A DNA stretch of 59,055 bases, the filler included, from Basidiobolus ranarum (lineage: Eukaryota): NCBI GenBank assembly GCA_040143965.1. It is 3 parts of 3 records of this genome, joined end to end, with 100 filler letters (N's around TTAATTAATTAA, not from the genome) between each part and the next. Parts side by side here need not be neighbours in the genome. Positions count along the whole stretch, not along the records: positions 39,491 to 59,055 come from JASJQH010007122.1; 2 more parts are not named here. One strand, given 5' to 3'. The notes beneath the pieces were generated by a model that saw nothing but the letters and a program-made list of their open reading frames with translations, was not told where the DNA came from and made no database searches. This document shows, in pieces, positions 8,271 to 54,210 of the stretch (position 1 is the first letter of the stretch; each line of letters opens with the position of its first letter). Position numbers and translations under genes: made by a program.

Positions 8271-11200
8271 ATGAGTATCCAATTAGACGCGAAAACTTTT
8301 CATAGAAGAGCTCGACATTTACTCTCTCGTTGGAAAGTGGGTATTTTATACCATAAGAGCTTTATTGAAATTACTAGATATGTTTTTCTTCACTATGTTG
8401 CCTAAAGACTGCCTACCTAAACTATCCATATATAGTATTCAGACAATAATTTGTTACCATTTATTCCTATCTTCTCTTAGAATGGGGCAGTTGATTCATA
8501 CCAAAAAGTTGACAGTATTGTAGTTGTCACTGGTAACGCTAACGAAGAAATACCATATCAGAAATCTACAGCATTACAGGTATTCTATGCTTCATAGAAT
8601 TTATAAATGTCTTTTTTTTGGATCACTCATTTTTTGTATAGACGTGGCTACTTGGTTATGAGTTTCCGAGTACCTTGATCGCGTTGACTGCTGATACCAT
8701 TCATTTTGTTACAAGTGGAAGCAAAGGTTTGGGGTTTCAATATCTCTCCTTCCTTTAATCCTTTATAGGATGCTAATATTGAAACAGGGAATCTCTTGGA
8801 GGGGTTGAAACAAGGCAATAATCAGGTATCCGTCGAGATCCATAAGCGTAGTAAAGACGAGTCACATAATCGTAGATTATTTGAAGATATCATCAGAATT
8901 ATTTCCACATCTAAAGAAGGAGTATCCTTTAATCCCCCAATTATGCATATACTGTAAAATATAACAACAGTTCCAAGTTTCAATATCTTAACATCATCTC
9001 TCAAGAAAAGCGTTGGTGTTTTTCTGAAAGACAGAATTGCTGGGAAATTTGTCGATGAATGGAAAGCAGCTTTGAAGAATAGTTCTCACCTCTTTGAGGA
9101 GATAGATATTAGTGCTAGTGTAGCCATGACTCTAGCAGTCAAAGAGGAAGAAGAGATTGTAAGTTCCACATCTGCCTGGATTCAATTTTCGAAGTTTTTT
9201 CAAAATGATTGCTTACATGCATATTTGAATCAGAAAACTACGAAGATTGCATGTAAACTTAGCTCACTTGTGATGAAGAATTTCTTTATTGACGAGATGT
9301 CCTCCATCATCGATGAGGAGAAGCAAATCACTCATGATAAATTATCAGAATCCACTGAAAATTCCATCTGGGATGATGGTATAGTTAAGCGTCTCAAACT
9401 CCCGACAGATGTAAGCTTTAGCGTAATAACATTAACCAACCGCCACTTTTGCTTCTAGTATTAATCGGAAGCTTCTCTTGAACCACTTTACTATTACAGG
9501 CCAAATTGGACTTGGCTGATTGGTGTTACTCTCCTATTGTTCAAAGCGGAGGTTCGTATGACTTACGTTCCTCGGCCATATCAAATAGTGATAACCTACA
9601 TGCCGGTACAATCGTATGCTCACTTGGCATTAGATATAAATCCTATTGCTCTAACATTGGTCGCACATTTCTGATCGACCCCAATAAGGTATGTCTAGAG
9701 AAACTAAAGTTGAGCTATCAAGGAACTTTACTGATTCCAAGCACTCCATTCTAGACACAGGAAAGAAATTATGAATTCTTACTCGATCTCCAGCGACGAG
9801 TTATAGAGACAGTGAAGGAAGGGGTGCTACTGAAAGATGTTTATCTCAAAGCTTTATCATTTATTAAAAATAAGAGACCCGAGTTGGAAAGCCATTTCGT
9901 TAAGAATTGTGGCTTTGTTACGGGGATCGAATTTCGCGAATCTGCCTTTACTCTTAACGAGAAAAACAACAAGGCTCTCCAGAACGGGATGATTGTTATT
10001 GTTGTTGTTGGATTTCAGGATATTAAGAATCCCAAGTCGAATGACGATAAAAGCAAGCACTATTCCTTACTTTTAATTGATACTGTACGTGTTACAAATG
10101 ACACACCAATTGTGCTTACCGAATGCAGCGCCAATTTGAATGATATCTCGTATTTCTTCAAAGATGAAGCTGGAGAGGAGGAAAGTGACACTATTACTAA
10201 AATAGATCGAGATACAAAACCAGTTGATTCGTCACCTCAACATCCCAAAAACTCTGCTATTTTAAAGAGTAAATTCAGAAGTCAAGAACAGACAGATGAA
10301 AGTTCTGAGCAAAAGAGAAAAAACCATCAAAAGGAACTTGCGGAGCAAATACAAGTTGAGGGTTTAGCCAGGTTTTCCGGTGGCAAAGAGGAAAATCAAG
10401 ATGACAAAAAAGTGACTTTCAAAAAATTCGAAAGTTACAAACGCGAAACCCTGTTGCCTAAGGAAGTCAAAGAGCTTAGAGTGGTTGTGGACCACAGAAA
10501 TGAAAGTATCATCTTGCCAATCTACGGTTTGGCAGTACCCTTCCATATATCCACCTTGAAAAATGCCAGTAAAAATGATGAAGGTGACTATGTTTACCTT
10601 CGTCTTAACTTTGTCACTCCCGGTCAAGGTGTCGGTAAAAAAGAGGACTTGCCATTTGATGATCCAGGTGCAAATTTTGTGCGTGCATTGACTTATCGTA
10701 GCTCTGATACCTACCGTATGACTGAAATCTACAAGAATATCCTGGAGCTGAAGAAGAATCTTGCGAAACGAGAGGCAGAGAAGAAAGAAATGGCGGATAT
10801 TGTAGAACAAGACCAGCTTGTTGAGATAAAAGGAAAACGACCTTTTAGATTACCAAATGTCTTTGCCCGGCCAGTTTTAGATGGCAAGCGAATGCCCGGA
10901 GAATTGGAAATCCATGCCAATGGTTTGCGCTACCTTTCTCCACTCAAAAACGAGCAAAAGATTGATTTACTCTTCAGTAATATAAAGCACCTTTTCTTCC
11001 AGCCCTGCGACTATGAATTGGTTGTTATTCTCCACGTTCATCTGAAGAATCCGATCATGATAGGAAAAAAGAAAACCAAAGATGTTCAGTTTTACCGAGA
11101 AGCCTCTGATGCACAATTCGATGAGACTGGCAATAGACGTCGTCGATATAACTATGGCGATGAAGACGAGCTGGAAGCTGAGCAAGAAGAGCGTAGACGC

Positions 11201-13832: not shown

Positions 13833-16603
13833 ATGTTAAAGGAACACGCTACTCATGAATCAACTAGGCCTAGCCAAAGTAGCTATAAAGAAAATTCTAA
13901 TACTTTGAAAACGAGTATTGGGAGTGAGGAGCCTCTTCTAAATGTGGAATATCAACAAGAAGAAACAAAATTTACGCACGTTCAGCGCCCTAATAATATA
14001 TCAGTTGATCTTATTCGTGATGGCTCGTTTGTTCCGAGCGAGCACTTCTTTCACACTCCACCATGTCACCCACATGGTAATATTTTTGATAGTCCTATAG
14101 AAGAAGTCTCTCAACAGGTAAAGTCTTCTAGATTTCCAAATGTTCTTTTGTTCTACTCGTTTTTCTAACTTTTGTTCTTCTCTCTTTAGTCATATTTTGA
14201 CTTTCCTCGACTACCAAAGGATTCTCCTCAATTTCCACCACCCAAAACAGTATTTCTCGATCACAGACATCGGGCTAATACCATGCCGTCAACTTTCAAG
14301 TTGGATTACTCGGAAGAGTATTCCAGTCTATCCCACAGACATAATATTGATCCACAAGGTAATGAGGCACTCACCCATCTACGAACCAACAACCGTGGAC
14401 AGTCGCTTTACAAGCGTTTTCCCAGTGAAGACGCCAATATTTGGCAGAGCTTCGATGAGCTTAGAATTGAAGATATGAATAATCAAAGATCATCAGAGTT
14501 AGTATTCTACTTGAGCCAAGCATATAGCTACATCCATATTGATCATCCTATCTAGGAAACCTTTATTTTTGGATGAGTCCAACATACAATACAACAAGGC
14601 ATCTAGAGATACACACTCTAATCACGATTATTTGAGTGAACACTTATCATCAGTCTTTGACAGTGATTTTATTCCGCAAGGTATGCAATGTCATCTTGAT
14701 AGCGTGCTACACGTGATTATCTAATAGCACATTTAGGTACACCTTATACCCGTCAGAATTTTCTTAACCACAAAGAGATTGACACGTTTCCCCCGGTGGT
14801 AAGTATTAATTAGCATATGGACTTGTCTATATCAATTAGTCATACAGCTTTAATAACAAACATCCGAATTCAATTCAGCTCTCCGCCACTTCTCCCAGGT
14901 TAGATACTCCTTCATTCACTGCTCTTAAGCAACCATTAACTGGAACTGAAAGGAATCATCCAAATCAGTGGACACCTTTCGTTGCTACCTCAAGAGCTAA
15001 AAATGGATCTACCGAAGGCAATACAAATTCCTATAATAATTTAGTATCTACACCAGGCTCGGCTGGCGGTCAAAAATTTTTTACCACCGAAATCTCCCCT
15101 GACTTGTTCAGTCCTCACGTTGCTTATGACTCACACGATGGAGGATACACTATGAACCCCAACAGGATACCTGTATTAAGCGAACATCATGGTCATCACC
15201 CATTCTATCAGCAAGGGATAGAGATGTGCAACCAGGCGGACTCTCCGCATGAGGGAAAACTAAAGCATTTGAAACCGAAGCAAGTTCATAATGGTGGTTA
15301 TCACGAGGGTCACTTTAAGTCCAGTAATTCAGGCAATTCAGGCAATCTTAGATCAAGCAACCACCATCATGGCCATCACCACTCAAAAGCAAATCACGGA
15401 ACTACGAAGAATGCTGGGTCCAAAACCTCTACCAACAAAATCAACCCCAAAAAAGCAGTCAGCGAGGTCGAGTCAATGAATCGGTTTCTAGGCGTTAGTC
15501 TTGAAAGCCTTGTTGGCGAAATTTATGCTCTATGTAGAGACCAACACGGATGTCGCTATCTACAGAAAAAATTGGAAGAACAGAATCCAGCTTATATAGA
15601 TATAATTTTCGAAGAAGTAAGCGAATATTTTGTGGATTTGATGACTGATCCATTTGGCAATTATCTCTGCCAAAAGTTGCTGGAGTATTCAAACGACGAG
15701 CAAAGAACAGTCCTGGTAGGGAAGGTGGCGCCTGAGTTGGTCAGAATCTCATTGAACATGCATGGCACGAGAGCTGCCCAAAAGCTGGTTGAGTATCTGT
15801 CGAATGCCAAACAAATCCAACTAGCCACTATCGCCCTGACCCCAAGCGTGGTTCCTCTCATTAAAGATTTGAATGGGAATCATGTGATCCAAAAGTGCTT
15901 GAGCTATTTGGCAGCAAAGGACAACCAATTCATATATGATGCTGTCACTCGTCAATGTGTTGAGGTCGCTACACACCGTCATGGCTGCTGCGTATTTCAG
16001 CGTTGTATCGACCATGCGTCTCCCGCACAAAAGGCTCAGCTCGTCGACGAGATTACTGTCCAGGGTCTGAGACTTGTGCAAGATCCATTTGGAAACTATG
16101 TCGTCCAGTATATATTGGATCTAGGGGAGGATCATTTTTCGAATTCCTTGATTCGAACCTTCTGGGGTAGTGTATGTGTGCTTTCTATTCAGAAATTCAG
16201 TTCCAACGTGATAGAAAAGTGCATCCGTGTGGCTGACAATGAAACTCGTCGAGGCCTAATCAAGGAATTATTGAACCCTGAGCAGTTGGAGAAACTACTA
16301 CGAGATTCATTCGCCAACTACGTGGTTCAAACTGCTCTGGATTATGCTGATCCTGTGCAACGCTCTCTTTTGGCGGAATGTATCAAACCAATGATTCCAT
16401 TCATTAAAAACACTCCCTATGGTAAGCGCATCCAAGGAAAGCTTTCGAAAGAGCAAGCACAACACCCTGTAATGTTTCTCAATACTGCTCCCCAGCCTTC
16501 TGTACCGATGGGAAACCTTCAGTACAAAGATATTCGCCCCGAGTACAAACACGCTACCATGAGCACCATGCGAGTCAACAACATCCGCTTTCCATTTTAT
16601 TGA
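13833..16603 (+). CDS. Pumilio/PUF RNA-binding protein, Puf4/Puf5-type (exons 13833-14117, 14190-14497, 14556-14680, 14737-14798, 14879-16603)
   Basis: Eight Puf repeats (DQHGCRYLQ, DPFGNYLCQ, NMHGTRAAQ, DLNGNHVIQ, HRHGCCVFQ, DPFGNYVVQ, QKFSSNVIE, DSFANYVVQ). The upstream exons splice in frame through GT-AG introns. Confidence 0.9.
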
Positions 16604-17810
16604 ATTTCCCGCAGACGCTCTTGTGCAAGTTATTATCAATCGAATTGATACTTGTGTATTCTTAACTGGTCCATTTTCTCCCGATTTGTATTTTGATGTG
16701 TTTTTAGTTATATTTTATTGCAGTTTTACACCCTGCTCGTATCGTATTTTTTTGCGTGCCGCATTAGGTTGCTCACGATTACGTTTCCGTTGAAATCCTT
16801 CAAGTGATTCTCTCTGAAACCATTAAGCAAAGTAAGCATGCGCCGTAGTGGCGTTAGTCGAATCCCAACGAAGCTGCATCATTGCTTTATTTTTCCCCTT
16901 CCTAAAGGTTGTGGGATTTTGATTCTTACATTTTGATGTTTTGTCTTCATGAAAAGTTGTACTTTATACAAGATTCGTATCTCAATCTGGCCTATATTCT
17001 TGGCTATCGTCCCTACATTTCCCTATGTAAAACAGTCCACTTCTCAGTTACTTTACATTGCCTTATAAAGTTGTACTATTATGTCAGATTTCTGTACTCC
17101 TTTCTGCTATCATGGACCAAAGCCTCGTTCTTCTAAAACAGCAACTGTTGCATCATTTGATAAAATCGACCTGGTATCATGTGACTCAAGAATATTATCC
17201 TATTCCATTAAGAGATGTTCGCTAATCAACAAAATGAAGCAAAAACCTTGGTATTCGAAGCCCCTTAATACACGTGTCACCAAGTTGACCAGCCTAAAGC
17301 TTATCCTAATTTTTGCAAACAACTGGCTTTTACTCACCAGCCTTTAGGTGATACAATTATTGCCTTGTAGAGAACTCAATATGTAGAATGTGACATGGGT
17401 GCTTAGCATTAATCTAATTTTAGATTTCCTCCTCCAATTAGTTGTCCATGCAGGTTACTCCAGTTGAAAGCAAAGCTGGATATTTGGAGTCGAGGGTGAA
17501 ACAACGCTAATGGTGTCACCATGGCCACCATATTCTTAATTTAACCTCCCTTTCCTGCATTTATTCCTTTCCGCTTATTTTGGTCCAGAGTTTAATCGGT
17601 TTACCGGAGTTGAATTTTAATACACATTATACTTGAAGATGGATTAAATTAACATCATCCACATTAACTCTTTCTGGTTATTCTAGTTCCAGTTATTAAA
17701 AAAAAGCGTGGCTCTTTTACACATATAAGACCAAAGAGGAGTCTTCCCTCCTTTTCCAAACAGTGCGCTATTGACGACATCTCTTTATTTCTTTCAAGCC
17801 TAAGAAAACA

Positions 17811-19674: not shown

Positions 19675-19774
19675 NNNNNNNNNNNNNNNNNNNNNNNNNN
19701 NNNNNNNNNNNNNNNNNNTTAATTAATTAANNNNNNNNNNNNNNNNNNNNNNNNNNNNNNNNNNNNNNNNNNNN
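19675..19774. other. Artificial contig-join spacer (N44-TTAATTAATTAA-N44)
   Basis: 100-nt N run with a six-frame stop linker at 19719-19730. Confidence 0.97.
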
Positions 19775-24754: not shown

Positions 24755-26483
24755 TTATAAATACGAGGTCCCGGTGACACATGTTCTGGGGAAGTACCCT
24801 TTAGTGTCCGGATCGCGGGATTTGTTGTACCCACCCAACCACTCTTCGCCTACTTCCTCGGTAATGACTATCTCATCTCCAGATTGGACCAACATTTCAT
24901 TTGTGCGCTGTGGCATATACGGTAAAAGTGCAGTCATCACAAAAAGTGGCTCTTCAAGAACCACATTAGACTCATTGATATTGACTGAAGGACTAGTCGA
25001 AAGTCGATAATTAGAAGAGTCCTTGTGATGATGATCATCATCAAAATCAGTAAAGCCAACGATGAAAGTTTCTAAGTTTGAAAATACATTAGTATTAACT
25101 CCTTGAACCTCAACATTCAAGTAATTCAAATATTTGAAAAATTACCTTCCAAAGCGGACTCGCGAATTCCAACTGAACTTTGGGTGCTTGTCCTGCAAGG
25201 TTGTGCAAAAGGTGGAACTGACAGGCCATTATAAGTACTAGCTTTTTTTGCCACTGGTGGCACCGATGGTGAAACCAAACTTTGAGTGGAAATAAAAGAT
25301 TGGCGAGAAATGAGAGGAGGAACGGTCGGTGGAACTGAGTGGTTTTTAATTGGCATTGGTGTATTCATGCCGGGTGAGTGGGAAGCAATCTCTGCTACTT
25401 CATTCAAATCAAAAAACCCTAGCGTACCATAAAGAGGTTAAAAAAGTGTTGTGGATTATATAAAGTGTGACTAATGCTTTTACCTTTGGTATCTCTGTTA
25501 TATTCAGGCTTGAACCACTGAGATTTACGGCGATTCCTAACTGCACGATAACCAACAAATCCACCTATACCGATTACAAGTGCAAGCGCACCAACAGAGC
25601 CACCAATGATAACTGGCATATTACGGGCACTGGAAGTACCAGTAGTCTGTTCATTAGAACTGGTGTCAAGGTTTTCGTTGGTTGATGCATTAGTAGCATC
25701 TACAATTTCCGGAACTGCGGAAGAGGTTTCTGTAGAAACCACATCAGAGGTAGGCAATTCAGTAGGCTGATCAACAGGTGAAGCAACTTCAGTAGGCTGG
25801 GTACTGGAGACATCATCGCTTGGAGCAGTAATTGTAGGAGTGAATATGACTTCATTACCATTATCGTCCCAAAGAGTAACAATAGGAGTGGGAGTAACGG
25901 TAAGGGGATTTCCATATTCATCCGATGTGGTAAAAGGAGTAGGAGTACTCATCCAAGGACTACCCTGACCATCCCATGAGGTTGAAGGGAATACAAAGGC
26001 ATTTCCATCTGCGTCCCAAAGGGTAGATACAGTTGGAGTTGGAGTATCTGCAACAAAATTACCGTCTTGATAGGAAGCCGTAGGGGTCGAGGTATCCCCA
26101 ACAGGATTACTGTCTTCATCGGATGTAGTTGGAGTGGGTTGAGATATATCTGTAGTGGTTGGCTCAACATTGCCTTCTTCACCTCCATTAGGTGATTGAT
26201 CACTATCTCCAGGTACTGAACCATCATGAATTTCTGTTTCCCCATCCTCTTCGCCATTTACATCGTCTCTGCGCACCAGGTTTGTGGTACAAAGACCATG
26301 ATTACACCTGGAAGAGGGTAGAATCAAAAATAAAAGAATACTGGTGAGTATTCGCCAAGTCTAAACATTACATATTACTACTTACTCTCTGCTTTGAATC
26401 ACTACTCCAGAGACGCCAGCAGTAGCCAATACAAGGCAAAGGGAAACACAGATAGAGCCTATAATCAAGAAACTCGATTTCAT
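24755..26483 (-). CDS. Type I membrane protein: signal peptide, S/T/D-rich ectodomain, single TM, cytoplasmic C-terminal SH3 (Fus1-like topology; 4 exons)
   Basis: MKSSFLIIGSICVSLCLVLATAG signal; LVRR dibasic site; TM IIGGSVGALALVIGIGGFVGY followed by RNRRK; SH3 ALLPY..EMLVQSGDEIVI..EEWLGG..GYFPRTCV. Introns 25483-25419 and 25145-25072 join the ORF-track pieces in frame. Confidence 0.82.
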
Positions 26484-39390: not shown

Positions 39391-39490
39391 NNNNNNNNNN
39401 NNNNNNNNNNNNNNNNNNNNNNNNNNNNNNNNNNTTAATTAATTAANNNNNNNNNNNNNNNNNNNNNNNNNNNNNNNNNNNNNNNNNNNN
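39391..39490. other. Artificial contig-join spacer (N44-TTAATTAATTAA-N44)
   Basis: Identical 100-nt spacer with the linker at 39435-39446. Confidence 0.97.
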
Positions 39491-51817: not shown

Positions 51818-54210
51818 TTAATTCTCATACGGAATCTCCATTCCAATGTGGTGACGGTATAAGTAGGTTTGGATCAACCATTTCAGGTTTGGTAGGGTAT
51901 TTCTCAGGTCCAACACTGTAAGTCTTTCTGCATATAGAAGCTAAATAACAAAGTAATTTGGTTAAATTTACTGCGCTCTTAGACACGGAGGTACCATATC
52001 TTACCTGTTCGATGTTTTTATTTAAAAGAAAAACCCCGTATTCAAACCTGGACCGATCCTCACCTTTAGAGTATAATGGGAATCTAAACAAAATAAATGA
52101 ATGATCAGCATTTCATCGCTTCAACAGGTGATTCAACCATGCATACTCATAAGAGCCTTGTAGTCTAGAAACTGGGTCAAAAATGGTGGCTCTAGAAGAT
52201 TTGCTTTTTATAGGATAGCGTAAGGGAACATCCATATACCCTGCCATCAATGTGACTACATGTGCGGTATATCCCAGAGCAGTTGCAATCATTTCCTCAT
52301 CGTTACCTATGCATGGTCTTAGACGTCTATCAGTTGAAATGATATAACAATGTAAGCCTTACCAGTAAAGACCGAATTGGGCAAAGTGACTCCAAGAATT
52401 TGGTACATAGAAGGATCAATAGGCGACTGTGAAGAAAAAATTAATATGGCGTGTATAAGTTTGAGCAAGAACAGCGAACCCATATACCGGCTCTATTGGG
52501 TAAATGTTCTGAAGTTCGTATATCATTTCACATTTTCGTTGAATAGTGAGTTGTTTGGTGTTTTCTAATAAAGCCCTAAATGATGCAGAGTCATCAAAAA
52601 ATGCAAGTGGCAACAAAATAGAAGTAAAAATGAAGTACTTATTTTGAGTTAGGTTCTTTCGACTTTCAGTCAAGTAAAGTTTTCCTGTTGAGCATCGCAA
52701 GTTCGCTTCCTCAAAATCCATCTGTCGCTGTTTGTTCTTATCTCGAAAACTATCGACAAAACGACGACCTGAGGCAAAAGATGGATTAATTTTCCAAGCC
52801 ATGTTTACGACTCTGGTAAATATTTCGTACAACTCTCTAACTGGATCTGTTTGTTTTTTATCTGCTCCTGAGTACACTGTAGCTTCGCTTTAGCTTTGGA
52901 AGACTGACGTTTCTGTTGGAGAGAATTTTAATACTTCTACTAACGATTAGCTTGAAAAAGATGTGTCCGTACTAATGTCAGTTTCATATCCTTTTTCGAC
53001 AATAAATTGTCTGCATCGCGAGCCACTGAGACCAGGGATTTTTTGTGATCCAGAAGTGTATTTTGGAGACTTACCAACCTATGCAGATATTTGTTACGGC
53101 GTGATACTAATTTCCAAAGAATAACACTCAAGGATACCTCATGATTGCTTCGCCGTCATACGATTTCTTTTCCTAAGTTGCCATTGAGAGGTATCAAGTT
53201 TTTAGCTGTTACTTGAAGAATAAGCTCTAAATAAACCGAACCTTATCAAGCGATATAGATAAAGACATAGGGTGACTTCCATTCAATTTCTCTTCCTATA
53301 CAGTAATCCCAAATCAAACAGAATTTAGTGTTCTATCGAACATTGTGAGGGGTTAATCGCATATATACCCTGGACATTTCTCGAGAGGTATAGAAGCCAT
53401 CGGAGAATTCAAAAAGTATTGTATTAGGCCGAAGTGGGATAGGATAATCGTATAGCTTCGTCTTGATTAGAAATTTACAACAAAGGGAAATACATCGTCT
53501 CTACATATTCATCTACCTTTGAGCTGATGAAATGTAAACATCTCAAATCCACTGTCCACTGTATCAACAATTTCAAAGATCCTTCATCTTCGTTCCATAT
53601 CTTGACGACAAGAAGTAAATATACAGTCAAGGAAAATGTTTAAGACTCATTACGCAACTTTGAAGACTATTTGACCATATTTCACAATTATGCAATAAAA
53701 AGGATATGAAAACTTTTACTGTCAACCCAGGAAGGCAAGTTGGAGGAATCGAGTGGTCCAAATGATGGATTCTAGATTGGAGCAAGTAAAATAAGTGACT
53801 AATTCTACTGTAATTCGTAGTAAAGCTTCAAATCCTACCAAAGAGTCGGGACAAACTTCACTCATATAGAAGGGAGGGTCTATGCATAAGATGACATTAG
53901 ATTTACTAAACATTGTCCAAAAATGAAGATATGAAAAGATTTATCTTGTACCATTTTCGTTTTCATGTAAAGTAAGAAAAGTGTTCAGTAGCTGAAAGCA
54001 GTCCTCGTCAAGATTGTGACTTTCTAGGTTGACTTCTACCGTTTCAGTATGTGTACAAGTCTCCATTGAGGTTTCGGGTTGTAAATTATTATCATCTTGT
54101 ATACCGTACGAGCTCGAATGGGGGATATATTCACTGTTGAAGGATATATTCCGGACTGCTATACTTCTAAGATTGCGTATCCGCTTTTTCAAGTCCAGCG
54201 TATTAGTCAT
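51818..54210 (-). CDS. UVRAG: UVRAG/Vps38-like PI3K complex II subunit (about 14 exons)
   Basis: RIRNLRSIAVRNI; PFYMSEV..SLNPSF; LVVKIW..LLIQWTVDL; PNTILFEFSDGFY; LQNIYPIEP; GVTLPNS; ATALGYTAH; VPLRYP; FPLYSKG..RFEYGVFLLNKNIEQLL; DLRNTLPNL. Confidence 0.92.
53079..53137 (-). other. Probable U12-type GT-AG intron in UVRAG
   Basis: 5'SS GTATCCTTG; branch-like GCCGTAAC 14 nt before the 3' end. Joins KSYDGEAIM-R-LVSLQ in phase 2. Confidence 0.7.
53615..53707 (-). other. U12-type AT-AC intron in UVRAG
   Basis: 5'SS ATATCCTTT; branch TTTCCTTGAC; 3'SS TTTAC 11 nt after the branch motif. Joins WVDSKSF-L-LVVKIW in phase 1. Confidence 0.93.

Follow-up and report, generated by a model that had tools for sequence, protein, structure and literature searches.

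The window analysed here is the whole 59,055-nt stretch of Basidiobolus ranarum DNA, joined from three parts, the last of which comes from contig G000:C7122. The minus strand of this last part carries the UVRAG/VPS38 gene (51818..54210), which has 15 exons and 14 introns of 56–93 nt, encodes 489 aa and is present as a single copy in the assembly. Within the C2 domain the coding sequence is interrupted, in phase 1 after codon 121, by intron 3 (53615..53707, minus strand), a 93-nt AT-AC intron that was assigned to the U12 type by its signals, the reading frame and junction scoring. The flanking exons on the same strand are exon 3 (53708..53771) and exon 4 (53517..53614). In the public gene model, the last 19 nt of exon 3 (GT donor at 53726) and the first 14 nt of exon 4 (AG acceptor at 53601) are taken as intron. 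The gap regions of the window (19675-19774 and 39391-39490) each consist of two 44-N runs around a 12-base island.

Searches with a 62-residue exon query returned one longer protein, P0002 (source name: hypothetical protein, Basidiobolus ranarum), and, among solved structures, human UVRAG. The 15-exon model with the AT-AC intron 3, read from 54210 to 51818, yielded 489 aa with a single terminal stop and was identical to P0002 letter for letter, except for 11 residues without counterpart in P0002. PF10186 was matched, and the C2 domain, the coiled coil and the C-terminal PF10186 region were collinear with human UVRAG. Together with the structure match, this bears out the earlier identification of the gene as UVRAG. 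Collinearity with UVRAG/Vps38 of class III PI3K complex II (PDB 7BL1, 9RX5) extended over query residues 68-475 (E 9.9e-51). Human UVRAG has 699 aa including a long C-terminal tail, whereas the Basidiobolus protein lacks that tail. No UVRAG paralogue was found in the assembly, all 11 matches being located on contig G000:C7122.

Intron 3 opens with ATATCCTTT, which matches the U12-type 5' site RTATCCTT. The minor-class 5' splice site ATATCCTTTTT occupies 53697..53707 (minus strand) and was assigned by motif and by pairing with U11. The branch motif reads TTTCCTTGAC, with its A located 13 nt before the intron end, and fits TCCTTRAC at a distance of approximately 10-20 nt; the minor-class branch site TCCTTGAC (53626..53633, minus strand), assigned by motif and by pairing with U12, has its predicted branch A at 53627. 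Near the intron end, TTTTCCTTGAC is followed by a 9-nt spacer and then by the AC 3' splice site (53615..53616, minus strand), and the ends AT...AC match each other as in U12-type introns. From the branch site to the AC end no polypyrimidine tract of note was seen, and exon 3 finishes in TC, not AG. The coordinates, length, 5' end, branch motif, spacer and AC end given in the first-pass annotation were all exact. Canonical U12-dependent AT-AC introns of animals and plants likewise combine RTATCCTT, TCCTTRAC 13 nt from the end, AC and phase 1, which is the commonest phase for minor introns (PMC10639083).

Strict RTATCCTY sites occurred nine times in the window, and only one of them, that of intron 3, had a strict YCCTTRAY within 400 nt. 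The window holds a single copy of the triple motif (ATATCCTT, TCCTTRAC and AC at branch distance). When the window was simulated 300 times with a first-order Markov model, the mean number of copies was 0.02, and six of the simulations contained at least one. An Rfam scan of the window gave no match at gathering score.

The length of intron 3 is divisible by three, yet its retention leads to a stop after codon 127, in agreement with the in-frame stops noted earlier inside the intron. All full-length UVRAG therefore depends on its removal.

Restored residues and choice of junction

When P0002 was compared with human UVRAG by phmmer (E 9.9e-51), an 11-column gap fell exactly at the intron 3 site. 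The homolog alignment comprised 121 rows (120 listed of 187 homologs, plus the model), of which 104 span this stretch. With the model and P0002 excluded, the restored columns were occupied in 99-102 of 102 spanning homologs. After excision of intron 3 the spacing from N-P to W is 28 residues, compared with 17 in the public model; 28 is the commonest spacing (41 of 104 spanning rows), and 27-29 residues were found in 86 of 104. The 11 residues are present in mammalian UVRAG, partly as a strand of the C2 domain. In the predicted fold of the mammalian homolog P0100 this strand covers residues 112-121 in a region with pLDDT 90-94, and its first five residues are predicted to fall in the stretch absent from P0002. 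Restoration of a conserved strand, as proposed in the first-pass annotation, was thus confirmed by the homolog-collinear frame, the spacing and the filled columns.

For junction scoring, all in-frame, stop-free junctions between exons 3 and 4 with GT/GC-AG, AT-AC or four mixed types of ends were listed (n = 104). Scored with a profile of 102 homologs that contained neither the model nor P0002 (the model was part of the alignment that set the profile boundaries), the AT-AC junction ranked first of 104 with 113.2 bits. The next-best junctions were shifts of the same AT-AC intron (108.0 bits). The best GC-AG junction reached 107.6 bits, 5.6 below AT-AC, and the best GT-AG junction 91.8.

Three signals, the restored frame and the best junction score all support the U12 class. 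We therefore regard intron 3 with high confidence as a genuine U12-type AT-AC intron of the single UVRAG/VPS38 gene, removed by the minor spliceosome, and as part of this reading the public GT-AG model as mis-annotated, with the loss of 11 residues. Were the public model right, the major spliceosome would remove a 126-nt GT-AG intron (53726-53601) and the protein would lack 11 C2 residues. In favour of that intron, it is the one deposited (P0002), keeps the frame and carries canonical ends. Against it, its junction scored 91.5 bits, compared with 113.2 for AT-AC, its removal deletes columns that 99-102 of 102 homologs occupy together with half a core strand, its donor GTTGAC is unlike the other donors of the gene, and the minor signals, a perfect set, would go unexplained. 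This GT-AG intron is very unlikely to be the regular splice, and might be a rare cryptic product. If the major spliceosome instead cut a GC-AG intron of the same 93 nt but displaced by 14 nt (53693-53601), the protein would keep its length, with five residues changed. We consider this extremely improbable: the GC-AG junction is in frame, stop-free and the best of those with GT/GC-AG ends, but GCATAATTG is a poor GC donor when judged against the usual consensus, the R/K before I-W found in 85 of 102 homologs is lost, and the minor signals become a coincidence whose simulated chance is low. As the first-pass annotation had anticipated for predictors confined to GT-AG introns, P0002 uses the GT at 53726 and the AG at 53601 and loses 11 residues.

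Several annotated homologs were themselves unusual in this region. The annotated UVRAG P0071 has its start approximately 14 residues ahead of the strand downstream of the intron site, and its N-terminus does not resemble those of homologs; such a start would be accounted for by an intron that went unrecognised at this position or close to it. In Glomeromycota, Mortierella and Calcarisporiella, many UVRAG annotations (P0019, P0020, P0029, P0034, P0038, P0044, P0048 and P0067) contain no part of C2 and begin around model residue 195-200; they are possibly split gene models, perhaps at a minor intron, or cases of real loss.

Minor spliceosome components and minor introns

The genome (65 Mb, 13,754 contigs) was searched for the four minor snRNAs, and each gave one full-length match with E 2e-5 or better. 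U11 (84.6 bits, Rfam cut-off 39) and U6atac (66.3 bits, cut-off 33) scored well above threshold, whereas U12 (49.4 bits, E 2.9e-7) and U4atac (46.6 bits, E 2.1e-5) remained below the gathering score of 53. The G+C content of the snRNA loci (0.38-0.40) equals that of the window. Positions +5..+11 of the intron 3 5' site pair with the 5' end of U11 from the same genome by six Watson-Crick pairs and one G-U pair, and the branch site pairs with U12 at 9 of 10 positions, with the A looped out. The duplex of U4atac 1-22 with U6atac had a free energy of -26.3 kcal/mol, which was reached by none of 1000 shuffles. Over the whole molecules, the U4atac:U6atac duplex did not outperform shuffles (116/200) and is uninformative. 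The U12:U6atac helix was weak in free duplex folding (-2.9 kcal/mol).

Among minor spliceosome proteins, three exons of the CCDC84/CENATAC family scored above cut-off, and a PDCD7/59K family match was just at cut-off (27.0 bits). A Ubiquitin_4 match was also obtained, and its exon matched U11/U12 25K in PDB 8R7N (E 0.011); for the CENATAC exon and the PDCD7 exon no solved structure was matched. A search with PF12220 led to one locus, probably U1-70K, and did not reveal SNRNP35.

Motif pairs of the form ATATCCTT...TCCTTRAC were found 24 times in the genome and three times for the reversed control. Pairs of the form GTATCCTT...TCCTTRAC were found 43 times, again with three for the control, which gives 67 pairs of both types against 6. 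These counts are a floor and not a census, the patterns being narrow and exact. Four of the 24 AT pairs (L013, L014, L026 and L027) are near-identical copies of one repeat and are probably false positives inside a mobile element. Without them, AC at branch distance was present in 14 of 20 AT pairs; among the GT pairs, 30 of 43 loci were fetched, and AG within 30 nt was present in 29 of these 30. At L015 (G000:C6907) and L022 (G000:C7309), AT-AC introns that differ in sequence lie between the same exon flanks, and by these flanks the two loci appear as duplicated genes with a minor intron kept in both. L032 and L037 show a like pattern for a GT-AG intron. Contigs C6907, C7309 and C7837 hold two motif pairs each, and on contig G000:C118 an AT-AC motif pair (25515-25603) accompanies the PDCD7/59K match (16255-16850).

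The box of the U6atac locus (L002:1501-1634, G000:C89) is unusual: it reads GUCGA, against AAGGA in the Rfam consensus. Against positions +4..+9 of the 5' site, 4 of 6 positions pair and C+6 and U+7 are unpaired, short of the pairing expected of AAGGA. DNA search did not find a second U6atac copy, and the model search scored 45 of 2894 candidates. The introns found keep the canonical 5' site despite the GUCGA box, a site that the search patterns required. The 10-mer GAGTCGAGAG of the box is repeated 97 nt upstream of its position in the gene (L002:1414-1423 and 1511-1520); the upstream copy may be due to chance or be a promoter element. U2-type AT-AC introns exist, and with this poorly pairing box and the low U12 and U4atac scores one could suppose that the AT-AC junction is right but is cut by the major spliceosome, the minor machinery being weakened. 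We give this supposition hardly any credence. A [GU]CCGA 'CC variant' of U6atac, called hard to explain, is described in PMC2396436 for cnidarians, amoebozoans, moss and oomycetes. In that variant the box is altered at the same three positions, and full pairing is likewise impossible. GUCGA is one letter off [GU]CCGA and stands in a fungus; judged by its letters it looks like a near form of the CC variant. Section 16 of PMC2396436 makes no mention of a CC-like variant in fungi, and AAGGA is given there for U6atac of Rhizopus and Phycomyces. In practice an AAGGA box is not needed for membership in the U12 type, as the CC-variant lineages of PMC2396436 share its lack.

The first-pass annotation had attributed to this genome a functional U11/U12/U4atac/U6atac system. 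Full-length matches to its four snRNAs were found; that the system functions is suggested by intact, mutually pairing snRNA genes and by the excess of motif pairs. Removal of intron 3 by the minor spliceosome is proposed from the established pathway, whereas the signals, the frame, the snRNA genes and the pairings were computed here. The U11/U12 di-snRNP would bind the 5' site and the branch site of intron 3 together, and U4atac/U6atac.U5 would then join. The A at 53627 would attack the AT end, forming a lariat, and exon 3 would be joined to exon 4 at the AC, resulting in a 489-aa PI3K complex II subunit with a whole C2 domain.

Two further introns of the window carry minor-class signals. UVRAG intron 7 (53079..53137, minus strand; 59 nt, GT-AG, phase 2) is 'minor-like', with the perfect minor 5' site GTATCCTTG and a weaker branch, CCGTAAC, which pairs with U12 at 5 of 10 positions. 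It is flanked by exon AG before and G after, and is already included in the public model. In PMC11347168, -2A/-1G and +1G are associated with minor-like introns able to dispense with the minor spliceosome. Intron 7 is a candidate intermediate between the two intron classes. The other is an 84-nt GT-AG intron of phase 0 in SPT16 (8922-9005, plus strand), with 5' site GTATCCTTTA and a branch-like ATCTTAAC 13 nt upstream of AG. After its removal the frame fits human SPT16 near the GK.(I/V)GVF.KD stretch. From these signals and the frame, it is a probable second minor intron of the window.

Age of intron 3

Human UVRAG is not known to carry an intron at this codon; introns are presumably present in it at positions equivalent to several neighbours of intron 3, intron 7 included. 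UVRAG does not appear among the minor-intron genes listed for human and mouse in the supplement of PMC6717393, where four control genes do appear. The human UVRAG gene id (checked in PMC6011598) does not appear in Table S8 of PMC11347168, a table for which there was no positive control. Judged by these lists, human (both sources) and mouse (PMC6717393) UVRAG, unlike the Basidiobolus gene, are not among the minor-intron genes.

Of 386 confirmed metagenome loci, the best 80 were kept. The intron 3 site was spanned by 59 of these 80 and not by the other 21, and none of the 59 had an intron at the site. The neighbouring introns, one ahead of N-P and one behind the next strand, are shared by several loci. 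The loci were mostly Dikarya-like by best match or transcript-like, and the strict U12 motif pair was present in none of the best 80, so that the metagenome result is uninformative on lineages that keep the minor spliceosome.

Because minor-intron gain is held to be very rare (PMC10639083), loss of intron 3 in animals and Dikarya is the default over gain in the fungal line. A major origin has been inferred for 15-20% of human minor introns (PMC11347168). It is conceivable, though we think it rather unlikely, that intron 3 was gained in the fungal line to Basidiobolus and is not ancestral, with intron 7 caught midway between the classes. In that case, gains would account for part of the unexplained minor-intron excess of Basidiobolus, where the density is high and the reconstructed ancestral density low (PMC10639083). 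They would have occurred in a lineage in which two of the pairings between U6atac and the 5' site have been lost. Gains would also be under-counted, since annotation misses AT-AC ones.

Relation to known minor introns of Basidiobolus

Minor-intron richness of Basidiobolus is already published, and intron 3 is not new in kind. In B. meristosporus, 249 minor introns (0.554%) were reported in PMC10639083, the highest value in fungi, with none convincing in Dikarya, and 237 in PMC11347168. B. meristosporus belongs to the same genus and shows the same signals, but is a different species from the present genome. As here, its U11 and U6atac are above and its U12 and U4atac below the Rfam cut-off (PMC11347168, Table S7). 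The supplement of PMC11347168, which names genes by id, contains neither 'UVRAG' nor 'VPS38', and among titles and abstract openings no publication was found that links UVRAG with minor or U12 introns. The supplements of PMC7367187 and PMC6800510 gave blanks, which are weak as these supplements were covered in part. Intron 3 is regarded here as a real minor intron that is probably unlisted, and the per-intron lists of both B. meristosporus surveys may hold its ortholog.

The immediate consequence is a correction of the public gene model, whose deposited protein is without 11 residues including half a core C2 strand. Surveys based on annotation will have missed intron 3, and the published counts for the genus are therefore likely lower bounds. 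The picture of which fungi keep the minor spliceosome is unchanged by intron 3. It would weigh more if it proved to have been gained, an event considered very rare for minor introns. A vesicle-traffic class is enriched among the minor-intron genes of Rhizophagus (PMC10639083), and by the signals described here UVRAG/VPS38 would be one more vesicle-traffic gene of an early-diverging fungus whose splicing depends on the minor spliceosome.
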